From contig JBFGLM010000040.1 of NCBI GenBank assembly GCA_041576165.1, positions 1 through 41,473 on the forward strand: 41,473 nt of DNA, in the 5' to 3' direction. Every line of letters begins with the position of its first letter. Position 1 is the first letter of the stretch. Source of the stretch: Acidimicrobiia bacterium. GTDB taxonomy: Bacteria > Actinomycetota > Acidimicrobiia > Spongiisociales > Spongiisociaceae. A program made the translations under genes and the position numbers. Positions 9,542 through 24,752 of the stretch are shown one piece after another. The notes under the pieces are model-generated. The model saw only the letters and a program-made list of their open reading frames with translations, had not been told where the DNA came from and made no database searches.

Positions 9542-9662
9542 TTCTTCACAAGTTCACGGCCGCTGGTGCTGTCGCTCCCCTTCAGCCGACTGCGCTGGCC
9601 GACCCCGGAGGCCGGGGAAAGCTCGAGAAGTAGTAACCCTCCCAGCGTGAGCACCAGGTAGC

Positions 9663-12113
9663 TCAGTCGGTATCCAGGACTCCACGGATGGCCTCGATGA
9701 TCTCGGAGGGGTCGCACGGCTTCGAGAGATAGGCGTCGCAACCGGCCTCCAAGCACCGGTCCTCGTCGCCCTTCATCGCCAGTGCCGTCAACGCGATGAC
9801 GGGAATGTGCATGGTGGCCGGGTTGGTCTTCAACGCCCGAGTAACCGACAACCCGTCACGCTTGGGCAGCTGCACGTCCATGAGGATGACGTCTGGACGG
9901 AACTCTCTAACCGCGCCTTCGGCTTGATCGCCGTCCACTGCCACCTCGGTCACGTAGCCCTCAGATGCGAGCACATCGGTGAACATCATCCGGTTAGCCT
10001 CGTTGTCTTCGACCACCAAGACCCGGACGGCGCCGTCGGCTAACTCGGTGCCGTGCTCCGCGACCAGCGTCTCCGTTCCCCTGCCGGTACTGAGGGTGGA
10101 GGCCAGTGGCAGGGTGAAGGTGAACGCCGAGCCGTGACCGAGCTCGCTCTCCACTCCCAGCGTTCCTCCCTGCATTTCCACGAGCTTGCGGGTCAGTGCC
10201 AAGCCGAGGCCGGTGCCCTCGTGAGCCCTAGCGAGGGAGTTGTCGAGTTGTTTGAACGGGGCGAAGACGTCGTCGAGCCTGTCCTGGGGAATTCCAACGC
10301 CGGTGTCCCACACGATCACGGCGAGGAACGGCCCCTCGACCCGGGCGCGCACTTCCACGCGGCCGCCCGGATCGGTGAATTTGATGGCATTCGAGAGCAG
10401 GTTGAGCAGGATCTGCTTGGTCCGGCGCGGGTCCGCCACCACGCTCGGCAGCGACTCCGGACAATCGACGTCGAGGCCTATCCCTTTGGCAAGCGCCTGC
10501 TCATTCACGACCGCGACGGCGGCGGTCGTGATCGGGCCCACGTCGACCACCACCGGCTCCGGTTCCAGCTGGTCGGCGTCGATCTTGGCGAGGTCGAGGA
10601 TGTCGTTGATCAGTTCCAGCAGATGGCGGCCGGCTGCCTCGATCTGCTCGAGATACGCGCTCTGCTTGGCGTTGACCGGCCCGTGAGTCTCACGCCCGAG
10701 GATTGTGGAGAGGCCGATGACTGCGTTCAGTGGGGTCCGCAACTCGTGGCTCATCGCGGCCAGGAACTCGTCCTTGGCTCGTGCAGTGCGCTCGGCCGCT
10801 TCCTTCGCTTCGAGCAACGCTGTCTCGATGGCCTTGCGCTCGGCGATGTTGCGAACGATCGCGGTGATGATCGAACGGGTACCGAGCTCCGTCCGCCCGA
10901 ACGAGACCTCAACCGATAACGGCGAACCCGACCGATCCAGGACGACCAGTTCGCTGGTGGGTGCGGATTGGTCGGACACGAGTCTCCGGTACTCGTCGAG
11001 ATGGTCTTCGGGAATCAACTCGGTGACGCTCCGGCCCACCATCTCGGCTTCGGTGAAGCCGGTCATCTGCTCGGCGGCGGGATTGAAGGCTTCGATGACA
11101 CCGTCATCACCGAAGGCCACGACGGCTTCGGAGGCGTGCTCGACCACGGCCCGGTAGAGCTCTTCTCGGCTGCGCTCGCGTTTCTCTGCCGCACGGCGCG
11201 CCTCTTCGCTCCCGATGGCTTCGATCATGCCGCCCACGGTGGCGACGAGGGGCTGGAGGTAGTCGACGATCGCCTCGTCGTAGCCATGGGGACGGTTGGA
11301 AACTGCCAACACGCCGGCCACCTCACCCGCCTTCAACACCGGGATCGCCAGAAACGAGTCGAGAGGAGGGTGACCGTAGGGCCGGCCGCCCTGGCGCGGG
11401 TCGTGCACGGGGTCATTGGCGATGATGTGGGTCTTGTCGGTCACGGCTCGCCCGAACAGGTTCTCTAGGTTGTGGAACTCCATGCCCCGGGGCCCGTGCT
11501 CGGCGTACATCTGCCGGGTCGCCTCGTTCCAGGCGATGTTGGTCATCGCCCACGTGCGCAGGAACGGAGCCCCTTCGGCGTCGTGATGTACCTGGGCGAT
11601 GAAGCCGTACTCGCTTTCCGTGATCGAGAGAAGATCTTCGAGCAGGTGGTCGAACAGCTCGCCAGGGTCGACCCCGGCGATGAAACGGCTCTGTACGTTG
11701 GTGAGTGTGTCCAACAGGGCGTTGCTGCGCACCAACTCAGCGTCGGTGCGGCGGCTGGCCGTCACATCCTCCAGCACGCCCTGGTAGAAGACCACCTCGC
11801 CGGCGTCGTCGAACACACCAAACGTGCTCACCCGCACCCAGATGCTGCGCCCATCCAGCAGCCTCAGCTCGATCTCCTCGGGGGGGATTGCCCCGCTGGC
11901 GGCGACCCGGCTCATCATGCTGTCGCGGGCCTGCGGGTCGGCGTAGAGGGAGCGAACATCGACGTCGACGAGGTCAGCGACTGAGTCTGCGCCGACCAGC
12001 TCGGCCAATGCCGGATTGCCGGCCACGATCCGGCCATCCGGCGTCGTCCGGAAGACGGCGACCGGAAGCTCAGCAACGATCGAGTCAGCGTCGGTGATGG
12101 TGTTCTGTTTCAT
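9663..12113 (-). CDS. Hybrid sensor histidine kinase/response regulator (PAS-GAF-PAS-HisKA-HATPase-REC)
   Basis: H-box MSHELRTPLN, N-box NLLSNAIKFT, DTGVGI, GTGLGL, and receiver VVEDN…LMDVQLP…KP. N-terminal PAS and GAF (PYGHPPLDSFLAIP). No transmembrane segment. Confidence 0.95.
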   Translation of the reverse strand: MKQNTITDADSIVAELPVAVFRTTPDGRIVAGNPALAELVGADSVADLVDVDVRSLYADPQARDSMMSRVAASGAIPPEEIELRLLDGRSIWVRVSTFGVFDDAGEVVFYQGVLEDVTASRRTDAELVRSNALLDTLTNVQSRFIAGVDPGELFDHLLEDLLSITESEYGFIAQVHHDAEGAPFLRTWAMTNIAWNEATRQMYAEHGPRGMEFHNLENLFGRAVTDKTHIIANDPVHDPRQGGRPYGHPPLDSFLAIPVLKAGEVAGVLAVSNRPHGYDEAIVDYLQPLVATVGGMIEAIGSEEARRAAEKRERSREELYRAVVEHASEAVVAFGDDGVIEAFNPAAEQMTGFTEAEMVGRSVTELIPEDHLDEYRRLVSDQSAPTSELVVLDRSGSPLSVEVSFGRTELGTRSIITAIVRNIAERKAIETALLEAKEAAERTARAKDEFLAAMSHELRTPLNAVIGLSTILGRETHGPVNAKQSAYLEQIEAAGRHLLELINDILDLAKIDADQLEPEPVVVDVGPITTAAVAVVNEQALAKGIGLDVDCPESLPSVVADPRRTKQILLNLLSNAIKFTDPGGRVEVRARVEGPFLAVIVWDTGVGIPQDRLDDVFAPFKQLDNSLARAHEGTGLGLALTRKLVEMQGGTLGVESELGHGSAFTFTLPLASTLSTGRGTETLVAEHGTELADGAVRVLVVEDNEANRMMFTDVLASEGYVTEVAVDGDQAEGAVREFRPDVILMDVQLPKRDGLSVTRALKTNPATMHIPVIALTALAMKGDEDRCLEAGCDAYLSKPCDPSEIIEAIRGVLDTD

Positions 12114-12134
12114 GAGAATGTGGCGGTGACTCAG

Positions 12135-12162
12135 TCATCGGTACCGACGGATTCCGCCTTGA
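12135..12162 (-). promoter_or_regulatory. Putative sigma28/WhiG-type promoter of the hybrid kinase gene
   Basis: Minus strand TCAA (12162-12159)-N16-ACCGATGA (12142-12135), about 20 nt upstream of ATG 12113. Same spacing as the three other sites in the island. Confidence 0.5.
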
Positions 12163-12177
12163 ACACCGACGGTTCGC

Positions 12178-12741
12178 CTATGCACCCACCAGAACCGACG
12201 CGATGGCCCGATCGACGGCTTCGGCTTCGAGCGGCTTCTGCAGGACCATCGAGCCGACCTGGTCCGCCCGTTCCAGGAGGGACTGCTCGGTGGTGGCGGT
12301 GATGAAGATCACGGCGATGCGTTCCAGGCCCTCGACCTGGGCCAGCCGTTCGGCAACCTCGAACCCATCGAGACCCGGCATCATGATGTCGAGAAAGAGG
12401 ACATCGGGGCGGAGCACGCCACAGAGCAAGAGTCCCTCGACCGGGCTGGTGGTGGTGATGACGTCTCCCTGATGACGGCCGTGAGCGACGAGGTCTTCAA
12501 CGATGGCACATGACACCGGGTCGTCGTCGATGGCCAGCACGCTGAGGCCGGTACGCACCCCGAGACGCTTCGCCATCTCCAAGAGCTGGGCCACGTGGAC
12601 TCGGCGCGGCTCGGTTCGCCCCCGTTCCCAGGCGTTGACGGTGGCGAACGACACGCCGAGACGGCGCGCCAGCGCCTCCTGGCTGTCGCCGGTCTCGCGG
12701 CGGATGCTGAGCACGAGCTCGGGGATGGTCGGTGCGGGCAT
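12178..12741 (-). CDS. XRE/Cro-C1 helix-turn-helix regulator fused to a C-terminal receiver domain
   Basis: SQEALARRLGVSFATVNAWERGRTEP (XRE HTH), then IDDD…FLDIMMP…FITA…QKP (REC). Start ATG 12741 (MPAPTIPEL). Confidence 0.9.
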   Translation of the reverse strand: MPAPTIPELVLSIRRETGDSQEALARRLGVSFATVNAWERGRTEPRRVHVAQLLEMAKRLGVRTGLSVLAIDDDPVSCAIVEDLVAHGRHQGDVITTTSPVEGLLLCGVLRPDVLFLDIMMPGLDGFEVAERLAQVEGLERIAVIFITATTEQSLLERADQVGSMVLQKPLEAEAVDRAIASVLVGA

Positions 12742-12748
12742 AGCCACC

Positions 12749-12776
12749 TCTTCGGCCTCTGGTGGGATGAACTTTA
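12749..12776 (-). promoter_or_regulatory. Putative sigma28/WhiG-type promoter of the XRE-REC gene
   Basis: Minus strand TAAAGTT (12776-12770)-N13-GCCGAAGA (12756-12749), equivalent to TAAA-N16-GCCGAA. Seven nt separate it from ATG 12741. Confidence 0.65.
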
Positions 12777-12780
12777 TAGC

Positions 12781-12825
12781 AAGTACATAAAAAAATATCA
12801 AGTTCTATCGCGTTAGTGCCGATGC
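12781..12825 (+). promoter_or_regulatory. Putative sigma28/WhiG-type promoter module (copy 1) of the STAS-glycan operon
   Basis: TCAAGTT (12798-12804)-N13-GCCGATGC (12818-12825), 7 nt before ATG 12833. Segment 12781-12823 matches 18805-18847 at 34/43 positions without gaps. Confidence 0.7.
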
Positions 12826-12832
12826 CCCGGTC

Positions 12833-13378
12833 ATGAACACAGCACACATCGTCTCGCTCTGCGGCCGGCTCGACGTCCACCGCCTCGACGAGGTGCGCGC
12901 CCTGGGCCGACACCCCGTCATCGATGCCTCCGGCATCGAGTTCCTCGACGCTCACGCCCTCGCCCTGCTCGACGAGCTGGGCGCCATCATCGCCGCCCCT
13001 TCCGACGTGGTTCGCATCACCCTCGAGCTGACCGGCTCGACGCTCTCCTGCTTCCCGACGGTGGAGGCGGCGCTCGGTATGCAAGCCGAGACGGTTCCCG
13101 ACTCGAACGTACTCCGCCCCGGGAGCCGTCTCGATCTCGAGACCGCCGACCAGTTCCGTCGGGACGCTGACCGCTTCCTGGCGTCGCCGGCCACGCACGC
13201 GATCGTCGACCTGGGCACCACCACCGAGATGGACGTCGCCGGGCTTGCCGCCCTCGCCTTCTTTCTCATCCGGTGCCGCGCCCAGAACCGATCTGTTGCC
13301 ATCGCCGGTCCGATCTCGCCGCCCGTGGGCCGCCTCATCGACTACAGCGGGTTCGATCTGCTCTTCGAAGCCGCCTGA
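12833..13378 (+). CDS. Tandem STAS (anti-sigma-factor antagonist-like) domain protein
   Basis: Two SpoIIAA-like repeats: LCGRLD…IDASGIEFLD…VRITLELTG…FPTVEAAL and GSRLDLETA…IVDLG…MDVAGL…LIDYSGFD. Confidence 0.8.
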   Translation: MNTAHIVSLCGRLDVHRLDEVRALGRHPVIDASGIEFLDAHALALLDELGAIIAAPSDVVRITLELTGSTLSCFPTVEAALGMQAETVPDSNVLRPGSRLDLETADQFRRDADRFLASPATHAIVDLGTTTEMDVAGLAALAFFLIRCRAQNRSVAIAGPISPPVGRLIDYSGFDLLFEAA

Positions 13379-13382
13379 GCTG

Positions 13383-14558
13383 ATGACGGCAGCAGTCAGA
13401 ACCCGGCGACCCACCTCGGCGCGACCCTCCGGCGCCGCCTTCCTCGTGAGCGCCGCCGTCGTGCACGGGGGCAACTACCTGTTCAACGTGGTGATGGGAC
13501 GCGCCCTCGGTCCCGCCCCGTTCTCGGACCTCCTCGTCGTCCTCACACTGCTGCTGGCGATGACGCTCGTCTCGGGGACGCTCCAGACGGCAGCAGCCAA
13601 GCTGGCAACGGAGTCTGGAGGCGGGGCCGCCAGCCGCTGGCTGCGGAGCCGGGCCCTTGGCGCCGGCTCGGTGCTGGCGCTGGTGATAGCGGCCGGCTCC
13701 CCCATGCTCTCCCGGTTCTTCAACGTCGAGTCGCCGCTGCCGTTCATCATCATCGCAGCAGGCGTCCCGGCCCTCCTGGCCCAGGCTGTCGATCGCGGTG
13801 TTCTCCAGGGCTCGGTTCGCTTCGGCCGCCTCGCCCTCTCCTATCAAGCCGAGATGTGGTGCCGCCTCGGTGGTGCCGGACTGCTGGTGTGGGCGGGCCT
13901 GGGCCTCAACGGTGCGGTGGCCGCGCTGGCGCTGTCCTTCTGGGTCAGCTGGGCCCTCTCCCGCCCCCGGTCTCGCTCTGGGCCGGCCACCGGCCGACCG
14001 CCGGTCGGTGCCGTAGCCGGAGCCGCGCTCTTGGCGGCCGGCGAAGTGCTCGTCAATCACGCCGATCTGCTCATCGTCAAGCACTTCAACGAGGCTGCGG
14101 TCGCGGGAGCCTTCGGCGCCATCGCACTGGTGGGGCGGATCCCCTTCTTCGCGGCCTGGACGCTGGCCGCCCTGGCCTTCCCCTCTGTCGCCGCCGGCGA
14201 CGGCCGCGCTCGGCGCCAGACCCTCGGCGCCGTGGCGGTCATCGGGACCGGGGTGACCGTCGCCGGCTGGGTCTTCCCCGGGGTGGTCGAGCTGCTCTTT
14301 GGCGATGGCTTCTTCACCTACGCCTCCTACCTCGGGCCCTATACCGCCTCCACCGCGATGTTCGCCCTGGCCCGGACCGAGGCGCTGCTCGAGCTGGCGG
14401 CAGGCCGCCATCGCGGCACCACCTTGGTGCTGGCGGCGGGCGTGGTCCAGGCCGCCGCCCTGTGGTGGCTGGGAGCTGCCATCGGCACCGTGGTCGCGGT
14501 GCGGCTGGCAGTGATGGCGTTGCTGGCAGCGGCGCTCGTCGTCGGGAGGCAGACATGA
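13383..14558 (+). CDS. Oligosaccharide flippase / polysaccharide-biosynthesis (Wzx/MOP-type) membrane protein
   Basis: GNYLFNVVMGRALGPAPF, DRGVLQG and DLLIVKHF…AGAFGAIALVGRIPFF; about 11-12 hydrophobic helices. Start ATG 13383. Confidence 0.82.
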   Translation: MTAAVRTRRPTSARPSGAAFLVSAAVVHGGNYLFNVVMGRALGPAPFSDLLVVLTLLLAMTLVSGTLQTAAAKLATESGGGAASRWLRSRALGAGSVLALVIAAGSPMLSRFFNVESPLPFIIIAAGVPALLAQAVDRGVLQGSVRFGRLALSYQAEMWCRLGGAGLLVWAGLGLNGAVAALALSFWVSWALSRPRSRSGPATGRPPVGAVAGAALLAAGEVLVNHADLLIVKHFNEAAVAGAFGAIALVGRIPFFAAWTLAALAFPSVAAGDGRARRQTLGAVAVIGTGVTVAGWVFPGVVELLFGDGFFTYASYLGPYTASTAMFALARTEALLELAAGRHRGTTLVLAAGVVQAAALWWLGAAIGTVVAVRLAVMALLAAALVVGRQT

Positions 14559-17500
14559 GCCCGGCCGTGAGTTACCACGACGCCGGAGAACTCAGGGCAG
14601 CTCGGCGAGTCCACCGTTGGGTCGGCGCCGCCTTCTACGCCTTGTCGTTCCTGGTGTTCCGCGATGTCCTCTTCGCCATCCCCCAGATCCTCGCCGGCGA
14701 AGCAGTGATCAACGGCGACGAGTTGGTCCCCTTCTTCAACCCCACCAGTCAGCTCTTCGACCAGGCCCGGGGCGAGTTCAGCCACCTAACCAACGGCTAC
14801 GAATTCCGGGTCCGCTACTCGTTCCTCACCACCTGGCTGCGCCACTACCAGGTGCTGCCGTTCGCCATCCTGCTCGTCATCCCCACGGTCTTCTTCGGGG
14901 TCTATGTGGCCGTGTCCCGCTTCGTGTCTGCCGTGTTCCGGACGCTGTCGCCGGTGTCGGTGGCCCTGGGAGCGGCGTTCCCCACCACGCTCGTCTACTC
15001 GATCGTCACCTATGCGAAGGTCACTCACTTCTACACGCTGATCCTGGGCCTGGCGCTCATGACCATCGCCGTCCTGCTGATGCTCTATGGACTGCTGTTC
15101 GCGGCTGAGCGCTGGGTGCGCTACCTGGTGGGCGCCTGCCTCGTCACCCTCTTCAACCCCGCAGTCCACTACGTCGTGCTGTTCGGCGTGTTCTTCGCCG
15201 TCGCCGGGGTGACCCTGGTGTTGGGCGAGCTGGCCCGATGGATCAGGCGGGGTTGGCCACGGCGCCTCCGCACCGTGCCCGCCCGCGCCAAGGCGGTGCT
15301 GCGCTCCCCCCGAGGCCTGCGAGATCTGGTAGCCGGCAACGTCATCCTTCGGGGCGTGGTCGGCGGGCTGCTCTTCCTGTGCATGACGGTCATCCCCTAC
15401 GCCCTCTTCGTGAAGTTCGTCGCCCTGCGCGGCATCGAGAACCTGTCGGTGACCGTTCCCGGGGACTACTACTTCATCCGCGACGCCTCGGTGTCCTGGC
15501 TCCACGTCATGTCGTGGGACCTGGCCGGGATCATGGACAAGATCCTCTTCGGCGACTACCTCGCCAAGGTCCCCCGCTATCCCAACGTCGTCTACTCGCT
15601 GCTGCTGGTTGCTCCCCTCGTGCTGCCTCCGGTGCGGCGCACCCTCTTGGCTGGCCGCCCCCACCGCCAGCTCTTCGGTGTGGTCTCTGTGACCGCGGCC
15701 TTCGCCGTCTGGGCCACCATCGGGTACGCCGAGCCGCAGTGGTTCCCCACCTTCCACCGCTCGATGGCGGCACTGGCCCGGGTGACCGCCCAGACCCCCC
15801 TCGGCGATCTGGCCCTGAAGGTGACCTCGACGGTCGTCCAGGTGCTGCGATTCCCCCATCGCTTCCAGCTGATCCTGTTCGTGCTGGCCCCGGTGCTCAT
15901 GACCCTCGGCCTCGCCTGGTCCATCGATGTGCTGCACGCCCACTGGATGCGCAGGCGCCCTGCAGCGGGAGGCGACACCCGACGCGCCGGCATCGCCTTG
16001 CGAGGAGCGGCAACACTGTGGGTCGCCACCTTCTTCTTCCTGCCCTTCTGGTCCAACGCCCCGTACCGGGAGGTGTTCGGGTCTGGCAACTTCGGCAACT
16101 TCGCCACGCCCATCCCGGTCGCCGACCTCCAGGAGTTGAAGGCCGAGCTGCTGCGGCTCCCCGAGGGCAAGACCGTCGTGTTGCCGCCTACCGAGAGCGG
16201 CAAGCTGGTGACGGACGGCAACGGCATCGATCACCGCTTCAACGACAAGTTCTTCATCTACTACCTGGATCAGCCGAGCTTCTACTACGGCCTCACCGGC
16301 GAGGCGGACAACAAGTTCGAGTTCTTCCTCATCTTGCGGGGCATCTACTACCAGCAGGACTGGTGGATCAACCCGGCCCGCGACATCGGCATCCGCTATC
16401 TCGTGGTCAACAACGAGTTGCGGGACAATCGCGGCGTCGGTGCCGAGTACCTGCCCGACGTCGAGTCCTATGCCGGGCCGGCCCTGGAGCGGCAGGTGGA
16501 CAACGGTTTCGTCGAGCTCCTCTTCGAGAACGACACGTACGTGCTCTACGAGCTGGTGGACGGTCCGCCCGAGGATCGGGAGACCCTGCTCATCGATTCC
16601 AGCTGGTCGGAGTACCTCGACCTCGTGTTCGACCGGCTGGCTCTCAGCCGCTGCTACGACTTCGAGTACCTGCCGTACTACGACCCGCCGGCGGCACCGG
16701 ATCAGCCGGTCAACCTGTTCACCACCGACGCCCACTCGGCCGCCGTCGACCTGCACGCTGTCAACGGTGCGTTCTTCCCGCCGACCTCCCGGGGGTTTGC
16801 CTTCGACTCCGACATCGTCACCTCGGCCTACTACCAGTCGCCGATGTTCCGGCTGTTCCTGTTCCTCTCCAACACCAAATGGAACCGAACCGAGATCATC
16901 ACGCCCGGCCTCTTCGGGACCGTGCGCGGGGGTTTCGCGGCCGCCCCGCGCTCCACCCGCCTCACCGTGCCGGTGTCGCTGGACCAGTCCGGGCGCTACC
17001 GGGTGCTGCTTCGGGGAGCGGCCACCGCCAACACACTCGAGGTCGCCGCCCCGAGCCTGGGGTACGAGAGGAATGTCGAACTCCGCTCGGGGACCGACTC
17101 ACTGCAGCTCTTCACCGAGGACACCGTGTACTCCGAAAGGCGAGTGGCCGTCGATATCTCGGCCATGTCCGTGGCCGATCTGGAGGACCGCATCGGCACC
17201 GACCTGGTGCCGGTCAACCTCCGCTACCAATACCACGACCTGGGCTGGGTGGAGGGATCGGCCGGGCTCCATCACGTCACCATCGACAAGACCGACGACA
17301 ACCCCATCCTCATCGAGGGCCTGGTACTCGTCCCCGCCGACGACTACCTCTGGCTGGAGCTTCCAGACCACGTGCACGTCGTCACCGACCCCGGGCAGCT
17401 CTCCTGCGGCGACCGCTACGACGTCTTCGACAGCCGCGAGCTCGACTACGTCGACCCCGCTGCCAATGCCGAGCACCGGAACCTCAGCAACGAGGAGCTG

Positions 17501-17668
17501 CTGTCGCTGGCGGCCGCCGGCGTCCCCGGCCTCGAGCCCGAAGAGGGCGGGGGCCTCCGTTACGACTGGCTGGTGCTGGCGCTCACCGCCGGGCTGCTCG
17601 TCGCCGCCACCTTGACAGTCAGGTCCCACACCCGCCCCCGCGCCGACGAGGAGAATGGCCATGCATGA
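14555..17668 (+). CDS. 1037-aa multi-pass membrane protein, probable GT-C-fold glycosyltransferase (AftD/YfhO-like layout)
   Basis: ATG 14555 overlaps the flippase stop. The first TM is followed by an acidic NGDE motif, then about 10 TMs including LRFPHRF, a large extracytoplasmic domain and a C-terminal TM anchor. The CDS is secure; the function is inferred. Confidence 0.7.
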   Translation: MSPAVSYHDAGELRAARRVHRWVGAAFYALSFLVFRDVLFAIPQILAGEAVINGDELVPFFNPTSQLFDQARGEFSHLTNGYEFRVRYSFLTTWLRHYQVLPFAILLVIPTVFFGVYVAVSRFVSAVFRTLSPVSVALGAAFPTTLVYSIVTYAKVTHFYTLILGLALMTIAVLLMLYGLLFAAERWVRYLVGACLVTLFNPAVHYVVLFGVFFAVAGVTLVLGELARWIRRGWPRRLRTVPARAKAVLRSPRGLRDLVAGNVILRGVVGGLLFLCMTVIPYALFVKFVALRGIENLSVTVPGDYYFIRDASVSWLHVMSWDLAGIMDKILFGDYLAKVPRYPNVVYSLLLVAPLVLPPVRRTLLAGRPHRQLFGVVSVTAAFAVWATIGYAEPQWFPTFHRSMAALARVTAQTPLGDLALKVTSTVVQVLRFPHRFQLILFVLAPVLMTLGLAWSIDVLHAHWMRRRPAAGGDTRRAGIALRGAATLWVATFFFLPFWSNAPYREVFGSGNFGNFATPIPVADLQELKAELLRLPEGKTVVLPPTESGKLVTDGNGIDHRFNDKFFIYYLDQPSFYYGLTGEADNKFEFFLILRGIYYQQDWWINPARDIGIRYLVVNNELRDNRGVGAEYLPDVESYAGPALERQVDNGFVELLFENDTYVLYELVDGPPEDRETLLIDSSWSEYLDLVFDRLALSRCYDFEYLPYYDPPAAPDQPVNLFTTDAHSAAVDLHAVNGAFFPPTSRGFAFDSDIVTSAYYQSPMFRLFLFLSNTKWNRTEIITPGLFGTVRGGFAAAPRSTRLTVPVSLDQSGRYRVLLRGAATANTLEVAAPSLGYERNVELRSGTDSLQLFTEDTVYSERRVAVDISAMSVADLEDRIGTDLVPVNLRYQYHDLGWVEGSAGLHHVTIDKTDDNPILIEGLVLVPADDYLWLELPDHVHVVTDPGQLSCGDRYDVFDSRELDYVDPAANAEHRNLSNEELLSLAAAGVPGLEPEEGGGLRYDWLVLALTAGLLVAATLTVRSHTRPRADEENGHA

Positions 17669-18824
17669 CCGGCCCCGCGTGGTGTTCCTCGGAACCCACG
17701 GCCAGTACAACCTCGGCGACGAGCTGCTGTTAGAGACCTTCCTCCACCAGCTCGGCCCTGATCCCCACTACGTCATCAACACCTACGACAAGGCGTTCAC
17801 CGCCGCCCAGCTCGGCGGCCGCTACTCATACGACCTGGTCGACACTGGCGGCGACCGAGTGAAGCTGCTGGGGCACCTGCTGCGGGCCGACCGGGTGGTG
17901 TTCGGCGGCGGCAGCATCGTCAAGGAGCTGTATTCGACGACAGGACGCAATCGGTACGCCACCCTCATGATGATCCTGGCCATCGTCACCTTCGCTCGCT
18001 GGGTGGCGCGACGCCCGGTGGCGATGCTCAATGTCGGCGTCGGGCCTATCACGACGTCGATGGGCAGGCGCCTGGCCCGCCTCATCCTGCGCCAGGTGGA
18101 CCTGGTGACCGTGCGCGACCCCGGTTCCTGGGAGCTGTGCCGATCACTCGGGGTCGACGCCCGACTCGCCGCCGACGCCGTCTTCTCTGCCGAGCCGCAG
18201 TGGCTCCTGGGCGGTCCGCCGCCGCGCCGGCACCCCGGTCCCCTCCGGATCGGCCTCAACCTCAATTACGACATCGCCAACCCGGCCAACTGGGACCACT
18301 TCACCGGCCGGCTGGCCGAGGCTCTGTGCCGCATCGGGACCACGCGGCCCATCGAGATCCACAGCCTGCCGATGCAGTGCGGCTTCAAGGATCACGACGA
18401 CGCCGACGTGCTGGGCGTCTTCGCCCGCCGCCTCCCCGAGATCGGCTTCATCCACCACCGGCCCACCACCCACCGCGAGGCGGCGCAGGTGATCGCCAGC
18501 TGCGACCTGGTGCTGAGCGAACGCCTCCACGCCCTCATCATGGCGTCCATCCTCGCCGTCCCCGCCTTCGCTCTCGCCTACGACGTCAAGGTCACCGAGC
18601 TGTCGTCGCTGCTCGGGCTCGACGACCACACCGTCGACATCAACCAGCCCTTCTCGGTGGCCGAGCTGGAGGCGCCGTTGCGCCACCTCATCGACCACCT
18701 CGATGAAGCCCGAGGTCGCCTGGCCTCTGCCACCGACCGGATTCGCTTCCAGGCCGACCGCTCCTTCGCGGCTGCCCGCCGCTGGCTTGGAGTTCGATCT
18801 CCAAAACTTCATAAAAACATATAA
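17661..18824 (+). CDS. Polysaccharide pyruvyl transferase family protein (CsaB/WcaK-like)
   Basis: Motifs GQYNLGDE, FGGGS, GVGP, TVRD and ERLHALI…AYDVKV. RBS GAGGAG at 17648-17653; alternative start 17655. Confidence 0.9.
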   Translation: MHDRPRVVFLGTHGQYNLGDELLLETFLHQLGPDPHYVINTYDKAFTAAQLGGRYSYDLVDTGGDRVKLLGHLLRADRVVFGGGSIVKELYSTTGRNRYATLMMILAIVTFARWVARRPVAMLNVGVGPITTSMGRRLARLILRQVDLVTVRDPGSWELCRSLGVDARLAADAVFSAEPQWLLGGPPPRRHPGPLRIGLNLNYDIANPANWDHFTGRLAEALCRIGTTRPIEIHSLPMQCGFKDHDDADVLGVFARRLPEIGFIHHRPTTHREAAQVIASCDLVLSERLHALIMASILAVPAFALAYDVKVTELSSLLGLDDHTVDINQPFSVAELEAPLRHLIDHLDEARGRLASATDRIRFQADRSFAAARRWLGVRSPKLHKNI

Positions 18825-18849
18825 AGTTATATGAAGTTAATGCCGATCT
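18805..18849 (+). promoter_or_regulatory. Putative sigma28/WhiG-type promoter module (copy 2), internal to the glycan cluster
   Basis: TAAAGTT (18822-18828)-N13-GCCGATCT (18842-18849). It contains the inverted repeat AACTTCATA/TATGAAGTT and the tandem ATATAAAGTT-ATATGAAGTT. Confidence 0.7.
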
Positions 18850-18866
18850 CCTGGAAAAGGAGATTC

Positions 18867-19634
18867 ATGACCTACCACGACTTCGACGCCTGGCGCTCGA
18901 CGCCTTCCGAGGAGACTCCGCTTCTCTCGGTGGTGGTGCCCACCTATAACGAATCCGAACGTTTGCTCCCCAGCCTGGCCGCCATCGCCGCCCACGTCTC
19001 GGCCCTGGGCGAGCCCTGGGAGCTCATCGTCTCCGACAGCTGCTCCACCGACGGCACCGCCGACCTGGCCGAGGGGCTGGGCTGGCGCAACACCACGGTG
19101 CTGCGGGTCGACCGGCGTGACGGAAAGGGCGCCGGGGTGGCCCGGGGAATGCTCGCCGCCCGCGGTGACTACGTGCTCTTCGCCGACGCCGACGGCTCCA
19201 CCCCCATCGCCGTCGTCAACCACTTCCTCGATCTCGTGCGCTCCGACGCCGCCGATGTCGTCGTCGCCTCCCGTGCCCACCTCGCGGAGGAAGCGAACCG
19301 CTCCCACCTGCGCCGCCTCCTCAGCGGTGGCCTGCGCGTCCTCACCCGGGCCGCCCTCAGCCTCGGGGTCGACGACTCCCAGTGTGGATTCAAGTTGTTC
19401 CGGCGCGACCTCGCCCACGCCGTCTTCAGCCGCCAGCACATCACCGGCTTCGCCTTCGACCTGGAGGCGCTGTACGTCGCTCGCAAGCTGGGTGCCCGCA
19501 TCGCCGAGGTACCCGTGGCCTGGGTCGACGCTCCCGGCTCCAAGGTCGAGCCGTTAGCGGAAGTGGGGCGGTTCCTCCAGGCCATTCTCGCCGTCCGCGG
19601 CAACGACCTGAGAGGGGCGTACGCACATGGGTGA
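18867..19634 (+). CDS. GT2 polyprenyl/dolichyl-phosphate glycosyltransferase (Alg5/DPM1-like)
   Basis: SVVVPTYNE, GKGAGV..GM, LFADADGSTP, DSQCGFKLF and GFAFDLE. Start ATG 18867 follows AGGAG. Confidence 0.9.
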   Translation: MTYHDFDAWRSTPSEETPLLSVVVPTYNESERLLPSLAAIAAHVSALGEPWELIVSDSCSTDGTADLAEGLGWRNTTVLRVDRRDGKGAGVARGMLAARGDYVLFADADGSTPIAVVNHFLDLVRSDAADVVVASRAHLAEEANRSHLRRLLSGGLRVLTRAALSLGVDDSQCGFKLFRRDLAHAVFSRQHITGFAFDLEALYVARKLGARIAEVPVAWVDAPGSKVEPLAEVGRFLQAILAVRGNDLRGAYAHG

Positions 19635-20802
19635 GCACATCGCGGTGGTCACGGCTTTCCCGCCGTCGACTGCCACCCTCAACGAGTACGGCTACCATCT
19701 GGTGACCGCCCTCGCCGCCAAGCCCGAGGTCGACCGGGTCACCGTGCTCGCCCCCGAGCTCGACAGCGACACCTATCCCGAGCTCGACGGGATCACCATC
19801 GTCGAGGGGTGGCGCTTCGACGCAGTCGGCACGCCGATGCGGATCGCCCGGACGCTGCGCCGCCTCCGTCCCGACGCCGTCATCTTCAACGCCCACTTCT
19901 CGAGCTTCGGCACCGGACGAGTTGCCGCGGCCACCGGCCTGATGGCTCCGCTGCTGGCCCGCGCCGGCGGGGTGCGCACCATCACGCTGCTGCACAACAT
20001 CGTCGAGGCCGTCGACCTGTCCCAGGCGGGGTTCCGGTTCGGCAGGGTGCTGGAGTCGGCGGTGCGGGCCATCGGCACCGTCCTCACGTGGGCGGTGCTG
20101 CGCTCCCACATGGTGACGGTGACCATCCCCGCTTACGTCGAGGTGTTGCGCTCCAAGTATCGGGCACGCAATGTGGCGCTGGTGCCCCACGGAGCCTTCG
20201 AGATCCCGCCTGAGCCCTCCTTTTCGTGGCAGGCCGGTGAGCCCCAGCGCATCCTCGCCTTCGGCAAGTTCGGAACGTACAAGCGGGTGGAGGATCTCAT
20301 CAAGGCCTACCGGGAGCTGGCACCGACCCGCAATCTGGAGCTCGTCATCGCCGGCACCGATAGCCCCAACGCTCCCGGCTACCTGGCCTCCATCGAGCAG
20401 CGTCTCGGGGGCGACGGCATAAGGTTCACCGGCTACGTGGAAGAGGACGACGTGCCGCAGCTCCTCGGCAGCGCAACCGTCGCTGTCTTCCCCTACACCG
20501 CAACCACCGGCAGCTCCGGGGTGCTCCACCAGGCCGGCAGCTACGGTTGCGCGGCGGTGTTGCCCAACATCGGCGACTTCGCCGCCGTGATCGAGTCGGA
20601 GGGATACCGGGGCGAGTACTTCCGGCCCGGAGATCCCGCCGATCTCGCCCGGGCTCTGGCCCGGGTCATCGACGAGCCCGCTCACGCGGCGGCGCTGGGG
20701 CGGCGCAACTACCTCGCTTCCCGCGGCTTGCCCATCAGCGAGGTCGCCGACTGGTACCTCGTCCATGCAACCGATTCGCGGCGCCAACGGGCTGCCGCCT
20801 GA
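19627..20802 (+). CDS. GT4-family (GT-B) glycosyltransferase
   Basis: TAFPPS..TLNEYG, AFGKFGTYKRVE, FTGYVEEDDV and FPYTATTGSSGVLHQA. Confidence 0.88.
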   Translation: MGEHIAVVTAFPPSTATLNEYGYHLVTALAAKPEVDRVTVLAPELDSDTYPELDGITIVEGWRFDAVGTPMRIARTLRRLRPDAVIFNAHFSSFGTGRVAAATGLMAPLLARAGGVRTITLLHNIVEAVDLSQAGFRFGRVLESAVRAIGTVLTWAVLRSHMVTVTIPAYVEVLRSKYRARNVALVPHGAFEIPPEPSFSWQAGEPQRILAFGKFGTYKRVEDLIKAYRELAPTRNLELVIAGTDSPNAPGYLASIEQRLGGDGIRFTGYVEEDDVPQLLGSATVAVFPYTATTGSSGVLHQAGSYGCAAVLPNIGDFAAVIESEGYRGEYFRPGDPADLARALARVIDEPAHAAALGRRNYLASRGLPISEVADWYLVHATDSRRQRAAA

Positions 20803-20833
20803 TACAGGTCCTCCTGAAGAAAGGAACTCGACC

Positions 20834-22252
20834 ATGACCTTCATCCCCGTCATCCTCTCAGGAGGAGCGGGCAGCCGCTTGTGGCCCCGCTCCCGCGAGC
20901 TCACCCCCAAGCAGCTGATCGCCCACCACGGCGAGGACTCGTTGTTGCAGCAGACAGCGGCCCGGCTGCGCAGCCTTCCTGAGGCAGAGGCCCCGATGGT
21001 GGTGTGCAACGTCGCCCACTGCCCCGACGTGATGGCACAGCTTGGCGACGTGGCCATCGCGCCCCAGCTCGTCATCGAGGAGCACACGGGGCGCAACACG
21101 GCTCCGGCGATGGCCGCCACCGCCTTGGCAGCCGGCGAGCGGGGGGACGACCCGGTCCTGCTCTTCGCCCCAGCCGACCACCTCATCGAGGACGAGGTCG
21201 CCCTCAAAGAGGCGGTGCTGACCGCCCTCGGCCACGCCGAGCGGGGCCGCCTCGTCACCCTCGGTGTGGTGCCGGACAGCCCCCACACCGGCTTCGGCTA
21301 CATCCGGACCGGAGACCAGCTCACCGAAGACGCGTTTCGAGTTGCTCAGTTCGTCGAGAAGCCCGACGGCAGCCGGGCCGAGCAGTACCTCGCCTCGGGC
21401 GACTACCTGTGGAACAGCGGCATGTTGATGGCGAAGGCCTCGACGATCCTCCAGCAGCTGCGCATCCACGCCCCGGCAGTGGTGGCGGCCGCCGCAGCTG
21501 CCGTCGAAGCCGCCCGGAGGGAGGACAATCGCATCGTCCTCGACCCGGCTGCCTTCGATACGGCTCCGGCGGTGTCGATGGAGTACGCCGTCCTCGAGCA
21601 CACCGACCTCGGTGTCGTCGTGCCGCTGCGGGCGGCGTGGAACGACCTCGGCTCGTGGAAAGCGATGTGGGAGGTCGGCGCCGCCGACGACAGCGGCAAT
21701 GTCCTCAACGGCGATGTGGTCGCCATCAACGCCCGCAACACCTTCGTGTCCGCCGAGTCCCGCCTGGTTGCGACCGCCGGCGTCGACGACATCGTGATCG
21801 TCGAGACCCCCGATGCTGTCCTCGTGGCTCATCGCGACAACGCCGAGGACGTGAAGGCGGTTGTCGGCGAGCTGCGCCGCGAAGGCCGCCCCGAGGTCGT
21901 CACCCATCGCCGGGTGCGGCGCCCCTGGGGCAGCTATGAGGTCCTCGACACCGGCGCCCGCGACCAGACCAAGCGCTTGGTCGTCCGCCCCGGGGCCCGG
22001 CTGTCGTTGCAACGCCACCTCCACCGCTCCGAGCACTGGGTGGTCACCCAGGGAACGGCCCTCGTCCAGCTTGGTGATGAGGAGACGACGGTCCACGAGA
22101 CCTGGTCGGTGTTCGTGCCCGCCGGCGTCGCCCACCGCATCACCAACCCCGGTCTCATCCCCCTGGAGATCATCGAGGTGCAGGTGGGCGGCTACGTGGG
22201 CGAGGACGACATCGAGCGTTTGGACGACGATTTCGGCAGGGCCGGCTCATGA
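20834..22252 (+). CDS. manC: Mannose-1-phosphate guanylyltransferase / mannose-6-phosphate isomerase
   Basis: ILSGGAGSRLWPRSR..PKQ, GRNTAPA, FVEKP, WNSG, WNDLGSW and the C-terminal cupin RPWGSY…SLQRHLHRSEHW…EDDIER. Start ATG 20834. Confidence 0.95.
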   Translation: MTFIPVILSGGAGSRLWPRSRELTPKQLIAHHGEDSLLQQTAARLRSLPEAEAPMVVCNVAHCPDVMAQLGDVAIAPQLVIEEHTGRNTAPAMAATALAAGERGDDPVLLFAPADHLIEDEVALKEAVLTALGHAERGRLVTLGVVPDSPHTGFGYIRTGDQLTEDAFRVAQFVEKPDGSRAEQYLASGDYLWNSGMLMAKASTILQQLRIHAPAVVAAAAAAVEAARREDNRIVLDPAAFDTAPAVSMEYAVLEHTDLGVVVPLRAAWNDLGSWKAMWEVGAADDSGNVLNGDVVAINARNTFVSAESRLVATAGVDDIVIVETPDAVLVAHRDNAEDVKAVVGELRREGRPEVVTHRRVRRPWGSYEVLDTGARDQTKRLVVRPGARLSLQRHLHRSEHWVVTQGTALVQLGDEETTVHETWSVFVPAGVAHRITNPGLIPLEIIEVQVGGYVGEDDIERLDDDFGRAGS

Positions 22253-23769
22253 CCGGTCCCGACTGGGTGCTGCTGCTCGACGACGACCCGTGGGCGCTGG
22301 AGATCACCTCAGAGATGCTCACCCGCCACGGCATCACCGTGCACGCGACCAGGACGGAGGCCGCAGCCCTCGCCGCCATCGAGCGAGACGGGGCGCCCTC
22401 GGTGCTCCTCCTGGACGTGATGATGCCCGGTGCCGACGGCTACAGCGTCTGCCGGCGGCTGCGCGCCAACGAAGTGTTGCGCCACACCCGGGTCGTGTTC
22501 GTCACCTCTCTCCACGACGAGCCCAGCCGCCTCGCCGCGCTCGGAGCCGGAGCCGACGATCTCATCGCCAAACCGATCAGCGAAGCGATCCTCATCGCCC
22601 GCATCCGCTCGCTCATCGAGCTGGCCCGGCTTCGGGACCGTAGCCATGCCCGCATGGAATACGAGGTGGTGCTCGACTCCATCGGCGAAGGCGTGCTCAC
22701 CATGGATGCCGCCGACCGTATCCTCAAAGCCAACGGACCTGCCCGCCGCCTGCTCGGCCTCCCGGCCGGACCGCTGGCCGGTTCCTCTCTGACGGAACGT
22801 CTCTCTGAAGGATGGAAGGTTGAACGGGGACAGCTCGGCAGCTCGACGACCGCCCGGCTGGTGGCGTCCGAGCCGCGTTCGGTAGCCGCAATCGATTGGA
22901 CCTCCCACGAGCTTCCTCCGGGAGAGGCCACCGAAGCCGCTTGGACGGTGATCATCCGCGACGCCACCGACGCCTGGGAACAGGACCGGGCACTCGGCCG
23001 GCTCATCCGCACGCTCAGCCACAAGGTGCGCACCCCTCTCACGGGACTGGGTACGAGCCTCGAACTGGTGGCCGAGTCGGGCGAGCTCGACGCCGAGTGT
23101 CAGGAGCTGATAGATGTGGCCCGGTCGTCGGCGACCCGGCTGAACGACACGCTGTTGCGCATCCTCGACTTCGTTGCCGCCCACACCAGCCAGCAGAGGG
23201 GGACACCCGAAACCGTCCAGGCCGGTTCGATGCGGTCGCAGCTGGGCCTTTCTGACGACGTCGAGCTAGGAGCAGTTCCAGCCCGGCCCATCACCATCGA
23301 ACTGGCGCTGGCACGTGGCTGCGTGGCTGAGTTGACGGCGAACGCATTCAACGCCGGCGCCACCAGGGTGACCCTGGATGTCGGGGTCGCGTCGGATGAC
23401 GCCGTGACCTTCGCTGTGACCGATGACGGCCCCGGCCTGCCTCTGGGCAGCGCCGAGCGCATCTTCGAGCCCTTCTATCAGCTCGACCGTTCCGGTGAGG
23501 CCGAGGGGACCGGCCTGGGACTTGCGATGGTGGCCGCTGAGGTCAAGAGCCGGGGCGGAGCGATCGGCGCCACGACACCAGCCGGTGGCCCCACGACGGT
23601 GTGGTTCCGCATCCCATGCCTGGCGCCACGTGGAAGTGGCGGCGGGGCGCCTGTAGAGCTCCCGGCGACACGTGGTGGTGGGGAACGGTCAGGGTGGAGC
23701 GTTGGCACCTCGGTCCTGTCGTCTCCGCCGGCGGCCTTGGGGAAGCGCCAGAGTCAAACGTCAGCATGA
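22249..23769 (+). CDS. Hybrid REC-PAS-histidine kinase with atypical H-box
   Basis: N-terminal receiver (LDDD, LLDVMMP, AKP), PAS (LDSIGEGV), H-box SHKVRTPL, DDGPG, IFEPF and GTGLGL. ATGA overlap with manC. Confidence 0.88.
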   Translation: MTGPDWVLLLDDDPWALEITSEMLTRHGITVHATRTEAAALAAIERDGAPSVLLLDVMMPGADGYSVCRRLRANEVLRHTRVVFVTSLHDEPSRLAALGAGADDLIAKPISEAILIARIRSLIELARLRDRSHARMEYEVVLDSIGEGVLTMDAADRILKANGPARRLLGLPAGPLAGSSLTERLSEGWKVERGQLGSSTTARLVASEPRSVAAIDWTSHELPPGEATEAAWTVIIRDATDAWEQDRALGRLIRTLSHKVRTPLTGLGTSLELVAESGELDAECQELIDVARSSATRLNDTLLRILDFVAAHTSQQRGTPETVQAGSMRSQLGLSDDVELGAVPARPITIELALARGCVAELTANAFNAGATRVTLDVGVASDDAVTFAVTDDGPGLPLGSAERIFEPFYQLDRSGEAEGTGLGLAMVAAEVKSRGGAIGATTPAGGPTTVWFRIPCLAPRGSGGGAPVELPATRGGGERSGWSVGTSVLSSPPAALGKRQSQTSA

Positions 23770-23874
23770 ATGTTGATGGTTCTGCTCGGCGCAAGTAGCG
23801 TTCGAAGAACGCGACATGCACCATCACCGCCCCATCGACCCGCCGACCGCCCATGACTCGCAAGGCGAGGATGT

Positions 23875-24612: not shown

Positions 24613-24752
24613 AGTTCACACCGTCGACGAGGCTTGTGATCTGTTGGGTCGTTAGTTCCAGCATGGCTTCTAGGTATCCGACCCTGCCAACCTGGGCCAG
24701 AGGAGTGTGACCCGGATCGCAGTCGGGCAACGGTCCGATGACCCTGTCCGAC

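Follow-up and report, generated by a model that had tools for sequence, protein, structure and literature searches.

Which part of a ten-gene island in an actinobacterial genome is a conserved pathway, what might that pathway build, and how might it be controlled? The island lies on contig JBFGLM010000040.1 of an Acidimicrobiia bacterium (assembly GCA_041576165.1), of which one stretch of 41,473 nucleotides (positions 1 to 41,473 of the forward strand; ~66% G+C) was analysed and is called the window throughout. A preliminary description, made from the sequence itself, had proposed that positions 9663-23769 form an undescribed system for a pyruvylated, lipid-carrier-dependent surface glycan, driven by a sigma-28/WhiG-type factor and controlled by a phosphorelay. 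Ten contiguous genes with the claimed domains are present at these positions (Pfam and NCBIfam searches); as a conserved system, the unit is not ten genes but five, encoding a flippase, a large glycosyltransferase of GT-C fold, a polysaccharide pyruvyl transferase, a GT2 and a GT4. This five-gene module is a rare surface-sugar pathway built around an undescribed GT-C family, and its layout is one for which we found no published description. On balance, and with modest confidence, we read the island as a rare, probably horizontally spread pathway of these five genes for a pyruvylated glycan on a lipid carrier, to which the lineage of the window has added a supply of GDP-mannose and a transcriptional circuit of its own.

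A five-gene core shared by two phyla

When one genome per species was scanned by pattern, relatives of the largest island protein, a 1037-amino-acid membrane protein (14555..17668, forward strand), turned up at 119 places. The best 80 were analysed with 10-kb flanks, and linkage was counted by tblastn with the window proteins in the 49 loci that span 20 kb or more. In 44 of these 49 well-flanked loci, the GT-C gene has the other four core genes (flippase, pyruvyl transferase, GT2 and GT4) no more than 10 kb away; the core is complete in 29 of 34 loci from Actinomycetota or other groups and in all 15 from Chloroflexota. Gene order within the core is shuffled among loci, identities range from 31 to 59%, and the flippase is found in 68 of 79 loci. 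Co-occurrence elsewhere, on which the preliminary description had staked its proposal, thus holds for the biosynthetic core and fails for the ten-gene unit. ManC, which had been counted as part of the system, falls outside it: the 79 other loci yielded one match of 25% identity and no convincing case.

Among the Actinomycetota, carriers of the module belong to Microbacterium, Agreia, Nakamurella, Mycolicibacterium, Actinokineospora, Actinophytocola, Acidimicrobiia and Ca. Microthrix, and among the Chloroflexota to Anaerolineae, Caldilineae and Thermoflexales. No relative of the large protein was found in 400 other genomes sampled across the phylum, a count that is a floor from a stricter first look, nor in any of five genomes of the same family or order. 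Its rarity and patchy taxonomy, combined with high identity, suggest that the core has spread horizontally. In the open literature that was covered (that is, outside subscription journals and bioRxiv supplements), no description of the gene set was found, in agreement with the earlier statement that no characterised system has this layout.

The usual order in Chloroflexota is GT2, GT4, STAS, PP2C, RsbW, STAS, receiver (REC), flippase, pyruvyl transferase and GT-C, and two further genes accompany the module there. A homologue of PIG-V-like (Dol-P-Man-type) GT-C mannosyltransferases occurs in 22 loci, all from Chloroflexota, and in 14 of the 15 well-flanked ones; a protein of ~850 residues with a 3-keto-disaccharide-hydrolase domain (DUF1080-type) occurs in 23 loci, again all from Chloroflexota. 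In loci L050 and L054-L080 (e.g. L050:12891-16846), this ~850-residue protein and the PIG-V-like gene follow the module. Separately, two loci (L012 and L027) in records titled as Synechococcus and Pseudomonas synxantha metagenome-assembled genomes show the Microbacterium-type locus with its gene order unchanged and a GT-C protein of 59% identity; these contigs are probably mis-binned.

The GT-C fold of the large membrane protein

The 1037-residue protein comprises an N-terminal GT-C fold (residues ~5-670), a CBM35/CBM6-like beta-sandwich (~700-935) and a C-terminal transmembrane anchor (1004-1025), as delineated by structure searches, invariant columns and a scan for transmembrane segments. 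It has at least 306 relatives of similar length, nearly all of them annotated as hypothetical; the labels 'YfhO family' and 'DUF998' are source names carried by single homologues. Attempts to name the protein by sequence brought out no relevant family. The window protein has no match in Pfam or NCBIfam, none of 20 homologues matched a GT-C family of Pfam at E ≤ 1, YfhO included, and a family profile searched against PDB sequences returned nothing meaningful, with no solved relative by sequence and the similarity to AftD undetectable. The ESM Atlas gave feature-level neighbours only, including clusters in which 24-30% of members carry DUF6311 or GT-C_AftD.

The fold itself, which the preliminary description had suspected, emerged from structure searches that agree with one another. 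With a model of moderate quality (predicted local distance difference test, pLDDT, 65.3; predicted template-modelling score, pTM, 0.59), Foldseek placed AftD first (E 1.1e-5), then STT3, DPY19, AftA and the Emb proteins, and re-alignment to STT3 gave Z 13.6 at a root-mean-square deviation (rmsd) of 5.6 Å over 429 aligned residues. An unbiased fold search, independent of Foldseek and run against 48,161 representative chains, led to the same class: all membrane-domain matches within its top 50 are GT-C enzymes that use lipid-linked sugars. AftD (Z 12.6, 407 aligned), DPY19 (Z 12.3) and STT3 (Z 12.3) came highest, followed by AglB, ArnT, Pmt1/Pmt4, PglB, ALG9/12 and AftA/B. The ectodomain matches CBM35/CBM6 modules at Z ~11 and an rmsd of ~3 Å over 118-142 residues.

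Conservation within the family points to a candidate active site. The stretch G54-D55-E56-L57-V58-P59-F60-F61, directly after the first transmembrane segment, is invariant in 20 homologues. GT-C enzymes carry catalytic acidic residues in the first extracytoplasmic loop, and the positive-inside rule, applied to the arginine-rich N-terminus, would put the D55-E56 loop on the outer face. Mean column identity over 20 sequences from different classes is 61%, and identities between phyla are 43-49%. From its modelled fold, the protein appears to be a GT-C enzyme of an undescribed family; the donor and acceptor proposed for it below are putative.

The other core enzymes and ManC

The protein encoded at 13383..14558 (forward strand, 391 residues) was recognised through its structure model and the Pfam matches of its homologues, of which 11 of 22 match Polysacc_synt (PF01943, best 1.2e-13) and 10 of 22 match Polysacc_synt_3 (PF13440). 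The model (pLDDT 90.2, pTM 0.87) has the 12-helix MOP fold and finds in Foldseek WzxE (TM-score 0.73), MATE proteins (E 1.8e-6) and MurJ (TM-score 0.75). WzxE is the lipid III flippase. We take the 391-residue protein, on the strength of this model, to be a Wzx-like member of the MOP superfamily.

The pyruvyl transferase (17655..18824, forward strand, 389 residues) had been correctly identified: it scores 117.5 bits against PF04230, with a cut-off of 25.3. Against the CsaB equivalog TIGR03609 it reaches 145.2 bits, below the cut-off of 213.1. It is the sole PF04230 match in the 5.1-Mb assembly, shares 43-59% identity with module copies elsewhere, and has no sequence relative in the PDB at E ≤ 0.001.

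The GT2 gene (18867..19634, forward strand) encodes 255 residues from ATG 18867. The longest open reading frame begins at 18831; the start at 18867 is the most likely because AAGGAG stands 4 nt upstream of it and homologue alignments begin at residue 13. Pfam and a family profile agree with the earlier assignment to polyprenyl-phosphate glycosyltransferases. Searched against the PDB, the profile matches PfDPMS (3.3e-25, positions 19-246 of 258), ArnC (2.8e-20) and GtrB (3.3e-18), and these are its only near-full-length matches, other GT2 enzymes matching the N-terminal half only. The best NCBIfam match is AglJ (1.4e-13; 50.9 bits, against a cut-off of 325). The transmembrane scan did not find a C-terminal anchor such as those of ArnC, GtrB and PfDPMS. 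Forms of polyprenyl-phosphate GT2 without transmembrane segments exist (human DPM1, mycobacterial Ppm1), so the missing anchor does not exclude this activity.

GT4 (19627..20802, forward strand, 391 residues) is a GT-B glycosyltransferase by Pfam. In three loci of Acidimicrobiia/Actinomycetota (L007:5932-7872, L034:13142-15088 and L038:8414-10405), GT2 and GT4 are fused into one protein of 646-663 residues. ManC, a bifunctional mannose-1-phosphate guanylyltransferase/mannose-6-phosphate isomerase (20765..22252, forward strand), scores 574.1 bits against TIGR01479, above the equivalog cut-off of 372.95, which confirms its identity; its start may instead be ATG 20834. A predicted complex of GT2, GT4 and the tandem STAS protein described below scored 0.64, against 0.56 with GT4 swapped for an unrelated protein, and was not used as evidence.

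The preliminary description had seen no priming phosphoglycosyl transferase, Wzy or Wzz, and domain searches found none in any window open reading frame scanned; of a Wzx/Wzy pathway, the window holds only the Wzx-like component. A tblastn search of the 80 loci with the genome's own four Bac_transf and two MraY/WecA-type proteins likewise brought up no priming enzyme near the module. Overlapping gene junctions had also been claimed, and four overlaps of 4-14 nt exist in open-reading-frame coordinates: flippase/GT-C (4 nt), GT-C/pyruvyl transferase (14 nt), GT2/GT4 (8 nt) and ManC/HK2 (4 nt).

Signalling genes and a partner switch

The island encodes two kinases and a response regulator besides its enzymes. 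HK1 (9663..12113, reverse strand) is a hybrid histidine kinase of 816 residues with the Pfam architecture PAS-GAF-PAS-HisKA-HATPase_c-REC; the XRE-REC response regulator (12178..12741, reverse strand, 187 residues) joins an N-terminal HTH_3 domain to a C-terminal receiver, its start at ATG 12741 being preferred over TTG 12801; and HK2 (22249..23769, forward strand, 506 residues) reads REC-PAS-HisKA-HATPase_c. Both kinases were said to be soluble, and no clear transmembrane segment was found in either: HK1, HK2, GT2 and GT4 all lack transmembrane-like segments, save one borderline window in the GAF domain of HK1. Control by a phosphorelay is not supported: hybrid kinases and XRE-REC are present, but Pfam finds no Hpt domain in any of the ten island proteins.

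Some of these regulators travel with the module. Orthologues of XRE-REC (46-51% identity over at least 88% of the length) occur in ten Microbacterium-type loci, nine of which also carry an orthologue of HK1; the HK1 orthologues are full-length, about 43-51% identical at 81% coverage, and lie beside the module. The XRE-REC of locus L099 is 87% identical to that of the window over residues 1-171, and copies of HK2 with 56-61% identity stand beside the module in L044, L104 and L105.

More widely, a different set prevails. All open reading frames of the loci were clustered and representatives annotated, on rough gene calls; over all loci the counts were 40 for SpoIIE-type PP2C, 38 for small STAS proteins, 31 for single receiver domains, 27 for RsbW-like HATPase_c_2 proteins and 40 for histidine kinases. 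PP2C is present in 32 and RsbW in 22 of the 49 well-flanked loci. These genes make up a partner switch within the biosynthetic cluster, where no sigma factor gene is close by, and in most other carriers this embedded STAS/RsbW/PP2C switch would probably gate the pathway at the protein level. The set of regulators thus varies between loci, and the preliminary description had not foreseen the partner switch.

In the window, the switch is reduced to a single protein of 181 residues (12833..13378, forward strand), in which Pfam recognises a STAS domain in the C-terminal half. Because both halves align to a relative's bona fide single-domain STAS protein (E 2e-9 and 5e-4), it is a tandem STAS, as claimed. 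Among 54 aligned module-linked STAS proteins, 52 keep Asp-Ser at the phospho-site as we read the alignment; the window halves read DAHAL and DVAGL in place of DS[SAT][GA]L. As its halves resemble the two STAS types of the Chloroflexota loci, the protein appears to have arisen by joining the two and to be fixed in the unphosphorylated state. Close relatives differ in this respect. L104 (GT-C 74% identical) has a histidine kinase, a REC-histidine kinase and a REC, then divergently STAS, PP2C, RsbW, flippase and GT-C; in the window and L099 (GT-C 85% identical), PP2C and RsbW are gone. A tblastn search of the whole assembly with the RsbW of L104 found nothing, and one with its PP2C gave distant matches only. 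Thus, the window has STAS alone, with both halves lacking the serine, and many other loci, L104 among them, have all three components. Since STAS is fused, the phospho-serine lost and no RsbW found, the partner switch of the window seems to have been replaced by transcriptional control, and HK1, HK2 and XRE-REC would tune the expression of the island.

A further sensor type was seen in ten loci (L039, L046 and eight more; Mycolicibacterium and some others), where an H-NOX (HNOB) protein lies beside a histidine kinase and an OmpR-type regulator, which hints at gas-responsive control in these loci.

Promoter-like sites of one geometry

Four promoter-like motifs of a single geometry had been noted, and all four lie just upstream of gene starts with the form 8+12+8, T[AC]AAGnnn-N12-[GA]CCGA[TA]nn. 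The site before HK1 (12162-12135, reverse strand), TCAAGGCG-N12-ACCGATGA, has one mismatch in its -10 box with the central CGA kept, and ends 21 nt before the ATG. The site before XRE-REC (12776-12749, reverse strand), TAAAGTTC-N12-GCCGAAGA, and that before the STAS, flippase, GT-C and pyruvyl transferase genes (12798-12825, forward strand), TCAAGTTC-N12-GCCGATGC, each end 7 nt before the ATG, for which reason the STAS and XRE-REC transcripts are probably leaderless. The fourth, before GT2 (18822-18849, forward strand), TAAAGTTA-N12-GCCGATCT, overlaps the stop codon of the pyruvyl transferase and ends 17 nt before the start. In the arrangement we propose, four promoters of sigma-28/WhiG type would drive HK1, XRE-REC, the STAS-flippase-GT-C-pyruvyl transferase genes and the GT2-GT4-ManC-HK2 genes, respectively.

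These sites resemble the consensus published for actinobacterial WhiG2, T(A/C)AA-N16-GCCGATAA (Denis et al. 2026, bioRxiv 10.64898/2026.01.14.699351). Under the search rule of the same work (T(A/C)AA-N16-GCCGA no more than 200 bp upstream of a start codon, with a single -10 mismatch tolerated if CGA is intact), three island sites are exact and the HK1 site has the one mismatch allowed. The pattern T[AC]AA-N16-GCCGA occurs 148 times in the 5.1-Mb genome, 30 times in promoter position on rough gene calls, and three of these 30 are in the island; by arithmetic over ~4,480 called genes, ~0.07 promoter-positioned sites would be expected for ten island genes. A narrower pattern, T[AC]AAGT[TC]-N13-GCCGA[AT], defined after the sites had been seen, occurs three times in the genome, each time in the island. 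The 20 genes behind exact matches include four histidine kinases, two GGDEF proteins, one receiver, a DUF4388 protein, a GT4-GNAT protein and a secreted repeat protein, the rest being chance-like.

One FliA/WhiG sigma of the genome (C14:15284-15952) scores 272.9 bits, above the cut-off of 189.6, and is located between an integrase-family gene and rpsB-tsf (region C14:14275-16976). C82 has a second, weaker sigma-28 copy (170.9 bits), next to FlgK/FlgL-like genes (region C82:8945-12099), and TCAAGTTC-N12-GTCGA stands 35 nt before this flagellar-cluster sigma gene. The proposal that the island is driven by sigma-28/WhiG is supported by the fit of the four sites to the published rule and by the presence of such a sigma; it applies to the close relatives of the window only. 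Among these, L099, L104 and L105 keep both boxes in place with differing spacers, and the XRE-REC site is kept in L099 with an 11-nt spacer. That the boxes are kept while the spacers change argues for a promoter rather than a contiguous operator.

The four motifs could instead be operators of XRE-REC or another factor, or promoters of a different alternative sigma, which we consider rather doubtful. Three observations would suit this explanation: the motif is found only in the window and its close relatives, where XRE-REC or receiver genes are shared too; the intergenic region between the divergent XRE-REC and STAS genes is conserved over its whole length in L099; and the putative regulon is made up mostly of signalling genes and free of flagellar or pilus genes. 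However, between the window and L104/L105 the boxes stay at fixed spacing and the spacer sequence is wholly changed, and L104 and L105 have the motif with a plain receiver and no XRE-REC orthologue. Distances of 7-21 nt to the start codons also suit promoters, and the boxes equal the published WhiG consensus (Denis et al. 2026). We conclude from the sequence that the motifs are real shared cis-elements of sigma-28 type, and that the sigma reading them is putative.

Two related leads were dropped. GCCGATR alone was found 32 times against 18 expected, mostly inside coding sequence, and was abandoned as a test; a secreted protein on C45 behind a similar motif was considered as a surface-layer homology (SLH) protein and rejected, as Pfam finds only CarboxypepD_reg-type repeats in its 502 residues and it is absent from the genome-wide SLH matches. 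As regards flagella, the assembly has one Flagellin_N match, which looks like FlgL, and no separate flagellin gene was found in it.

A proposed pathway and its rivals

We propose the following order of events for the pathway. At the inner face of the membrane, the GT2, which has no transmembrane segment, would load a hexose, plausibly mannose from GDP-mannose made by ManC, onto polyprenyl phosphate, and GT4 would attach a second sugar; the natural GT2-GT4 fusions support the coupling of these two steps. The pyruvyl transferase would then add a pyruvate ketal from phosphoenolpyruvate to the lipid-linked saccharide, a step placed in the cytoplasm because phosphoenolpyruvate is cytoplasmic and because characterised pyruvyl transferases act on lipid-linked precursors, CsaB and WcfO doing so in the cytoplasm on precursors linked to undecaprenyl diphosphate (Und-PP; PMC6801904). 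The protein of Wzx-like MOP fold is expected to flip the saccharide, and the GT-C protein to transfer it to an outer acceptor held by the CBM35-like ectodomain, most likely a cell-wall or surface glycan. That the sugar is mannose, as the preliminary description had it, is hinted at, indirectly, by ManC and a GH92 gene in the window and by the PIG-V-like GT-C of Chloroflexota.

Several observations weigh against this reading. Five of the 34 well-flanked actinobacterial loci (L006, L008, L009, L010 and L032) lack GT2 and/or GT4 or the flippase within their flanks. Wzx-type flippases usually move diphosphate-linked units, and the four Bac_transf and two MraY/WecA-type genes elsewhere in the genome could prime; for both reasons, a monophosphate-linked route is not required. 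The window flippase itself has no match in Pfam or NCBIfam, and the likeness of GT2 to DPMS, ArnC and GtrB is at family level and does not come near an NCBIfam equivalog cut-off. The quality of the GT-C model is moderate, and its most conserved loops (55-90 and 291-344) are its least confident parts; Z values of ~12-13 are borderline for helical bundles, so that the agreement among GT-C matches outweighs any single value. The linkage of ManC, being unique to the window, argues only weakly for mannose. On the regulatory side, the promoter motif was partly defined after seeing the sites, and the other 79 loci hold 17 background-level matches to it in 1.46 Mb, none clearly at module promoters. 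Many matches genome-wide look like chance, standing before housekeeping genes, and no flagellar or pilus gene is among the 20 downstream of exact matches.

Chief among the rival readings is a diphosphate-linked Wzx pathway, in which an unlinked phosphoglycosyl transferase primes undecaprenyl phosphate, GT2 and GT4 elongate, the pyruvyl transferase caps, Wzx flips the unit, and the 1037-residue protein acts as polymerase or ligase, that is, as a substitute for Wzy, WaaL or LCP; we regard this as somewhat unlikely. WzxE is among the best structural matches of the flippase, and Wzx proteins classically carry Und-PP units. The genome holds the four Bac_transf and two MraY/WecA-type genes to prime such a route, and the characterised CsaB and WcfO work on Und-PP-linked precursors (PMC6801904). 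Yet none of the 80 loci links a priming enzyme to the five genes, which themselves stay together across two phyla, the only near-full-length structural relatives of the GT2 family are polyprenyl-monophosphate enzymes, and the top matches of the large protein are GT-C enzymes of the STT3/DPY19/AftD/ArnT/PMT kind.

Another possibility concerns the window organism only: its product could be a pyruvylated cell-wall ligand for SLH surface proteins, in place of a CsaB-dependent secondary cell-wall polymer. The coupling of SLH proteins to CsaB is established (PMC6801904, PMC6030368), and the host is rich in SLH proteins, with 48 domain matches in about 30 open frames (e.g. C31:7840-8298, C1:129725-130024 and C35:27915-28379) and the island's pyruvyl transferase as the only one in the assembly. 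Among 30 further genomes sampled from the order, a pyruvyl transferase is present in all 12 genomes that have 10 SLH matches or more (in all 10 once the unpublished G407 and G416 are set aside), in 2 of 12 with no SLH match and in 1 of 6 with 2-9 matches. Against it, the CsaB-like enzymes of the SLH-rich relatives are only 24-30% identical to the island's, and the large protein was not found in five SLH-rich relatives, for which two reasons the usual CsaB of the lineage is a different gene; the island enzyme also falls below the CsaB equivalog cut-off. Either the host lineage uses the module in place of CsaB, or a canonical csaB is missing from this incomplete and contaminated bin (96.5% complete, 7.5% contaminated). 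We consider the SLH ligand an unlikely product. As a general function of the module, SLH anchoring was ruled out, since none of five other carrier genomes (Microbacterium, Agreia, Mycolicibacterium, Actinokineospora and Anaerolineales) has an SLH match.

That every unusual trait should hold at once, namely a self-contained route in archaeal/eukaryote style with a pyruvylated oligosaccharide built on monophosphate by GT2 and GT4 with no phosphoglycosyl transferase, a Wzx-like flip, en bloc transfer by the GT-C enzyme, direct gating by STAS at the protein level and, in the lineage of the window, rewiring to WhiG and service as the sole source of the SLH ligand, seems distinctly improbable. Least of all do we favour a protein glycosyltransferase, of oligosaccharyltransferase or PMT kind, that puts a short pyruvylated glycan onto secreted or surface proteins: the best structural matches do include STT3/OST, PglB, AglB, DPY19 and Pmt1/4, there is a likeness between the gene set and the Agl pathway of Haloferax, and AglJ is the best NCBIfam match of GT2, but the fold search is blind to the class of acceptor, the ectodomain is of the CBM35/CBM6 kind found in AftD and other glycan-handling enzymes, and no acceptor protein gene is conserved in the neighbourhood, which makes this very improbable.

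Relation to known systems

In its working logic, the five-gene pathway that we prefer appears closest to the three-component GT2/flippase/GT-C systems and to the archaeal Agl pathway. Three-component systems include GtrB/GtrA/GtrC, CsbB/GtcA/YfhO (lipoteichoic acid glycosylation), ArnC/ArnEF/ArnT and mycobacterial PpgS/Rv3632/Rv3779. Like the module, they encode together a cytoplasmic GT2 of polyprenyl-phosphate type, a flippase and a GT-C enzyme at the outer face. The module differs in that its flippase is a 12-helix Wzx/MOP protein and not of the small GtrA/GtcA or ArnEF type, in that GT4 and the pyruvyl transferase would imply an oligosaccharide with a pyruvate ketal instead of a single sugar, and in that its GT-C protein belongs to no named family and signalling genes are embedded in the cluster. 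N-glycosylation in Haloferax volcanii employs AglJ, AglG/I/E, the Wzx-like AglR, and AglS and AglB, both GT-C enzymes. There too, a GT2 starts on polyprenyl monophosphate, further transferases extend the chain, a Wzx-like flip is implicated and a GT-C enzyme transfers the product outside; the Agl pathway, however, is archaeal and protein-directed with no pyruvylation known, and the module GT2 is far below the AglJ cut-off.

Mycobacterial AftD and Emb proteins are, like the module GT-C, large GT-C enzymes with carbohydrate-binding ectodomains; the module protein differs from them in domain content, size and gene context (pyruvyl transferase, Wzx and GT4). As regards the switch, one parallel is the Vibrio fischeri syp locus with SypA and SypE. 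Another comes from Anabaena, where STAS proteins, RsbW-like kinases and REC-PP2C lie by polysaccharide genes with no linked sigma, as in module loci, and where HenR acts directly on the STAS-fused priming transferase All4160, so that a partner switch works on a polysaccharide enzyme (PMC13555669). The cyanobacterial STAS is fused to a Bac_transf priming enzyme, and the module has none. The CsaB-dependent wall polymers of Bacillus anthracis and Paenibacillus alvei (PMC6801904, PMC6030368) share with the module a PF04230 enzyme, probably a lipid-linked precursor, and a flip of Wzx type; the module lacks linked TagO/TagA and has a GT-C protein where these systems have a Wzy-like one. Regulons predicted for WhiG/FliA contain signalling and cyclic di-GMP genes (Denis et al. 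2026), as do the 20 downstream genes of this genome. The words 'polysaccharide' and 'glycosyltransferase' are absent from the main text of that work, and in this sense a glycan island has not been described there as a WhiG target.

These comparisons indicate why the module deserves attention. It is a compact glycan pathway whose key GT-C family is very strongly conserved and lacks a name, a Pfam model and a solved relative. If GT2 and GT4 do build on polyprenyl monophosphate, it would be a bacterial counterpart of the assembly of oligosaccharides on dolichol phosphate. The embedded STAS/RsbW/PP2C genes without a sigma offer a second, widespread system in which to ask what sigma-less switches bind, a question recently opened for the heterocyst polysaccharide of Anabaena. 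The window also offers an experiment of nature, since the switch there would have given way to promoters of sigma-28 type and a phospho-dead tandem STAS. Some carriers of the module can be cultivated, among them Microbacterium and Agreia, with Microbacterium halimionae CECT 8593 (L003) and Agreia bicolorata VKM Ac-1804 (L024) as examples.

Surroundings of the island

The real genes of the window were told from many spurious open reading frames by G+C at codon positions. G+C is higher in the island (0.65-0.71) than in the flanks (0.62-0.69), and the GC skew of the island is negative. Scans of 9000-25000 for sigma-70-type promoters (0 sites against 1.1 expected) and for terminator-like sites (4 against 5.5 expected) were uninformative.

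Directly upstream of the island lie a gene of the GH92 alpha-mannosidase family (5979-8135) and a membrane protein of the ceramidase family (8214-9128). By tblastn, none of the 79 other loci has either gene beside the module; the GH92 gene beside ManC may serve the turnover of a mannose-containing glycan in the lineage of the window. Downstream, a short-chain dehydrogenase and a PhaC-type polyhydroxyalkanoate synthase occupy 25807-28489 and a small XRE-type helix-turn-helix gene 28978-29400, and these appear unrelated to the island. Between them and the island, the ~1 kb that follows HK2 (23770-24752) has a lower G+C (0.62) and only short open reading frames, none with a Pfam match, and may represent decayed genes or a regulatory or insertion remnant.

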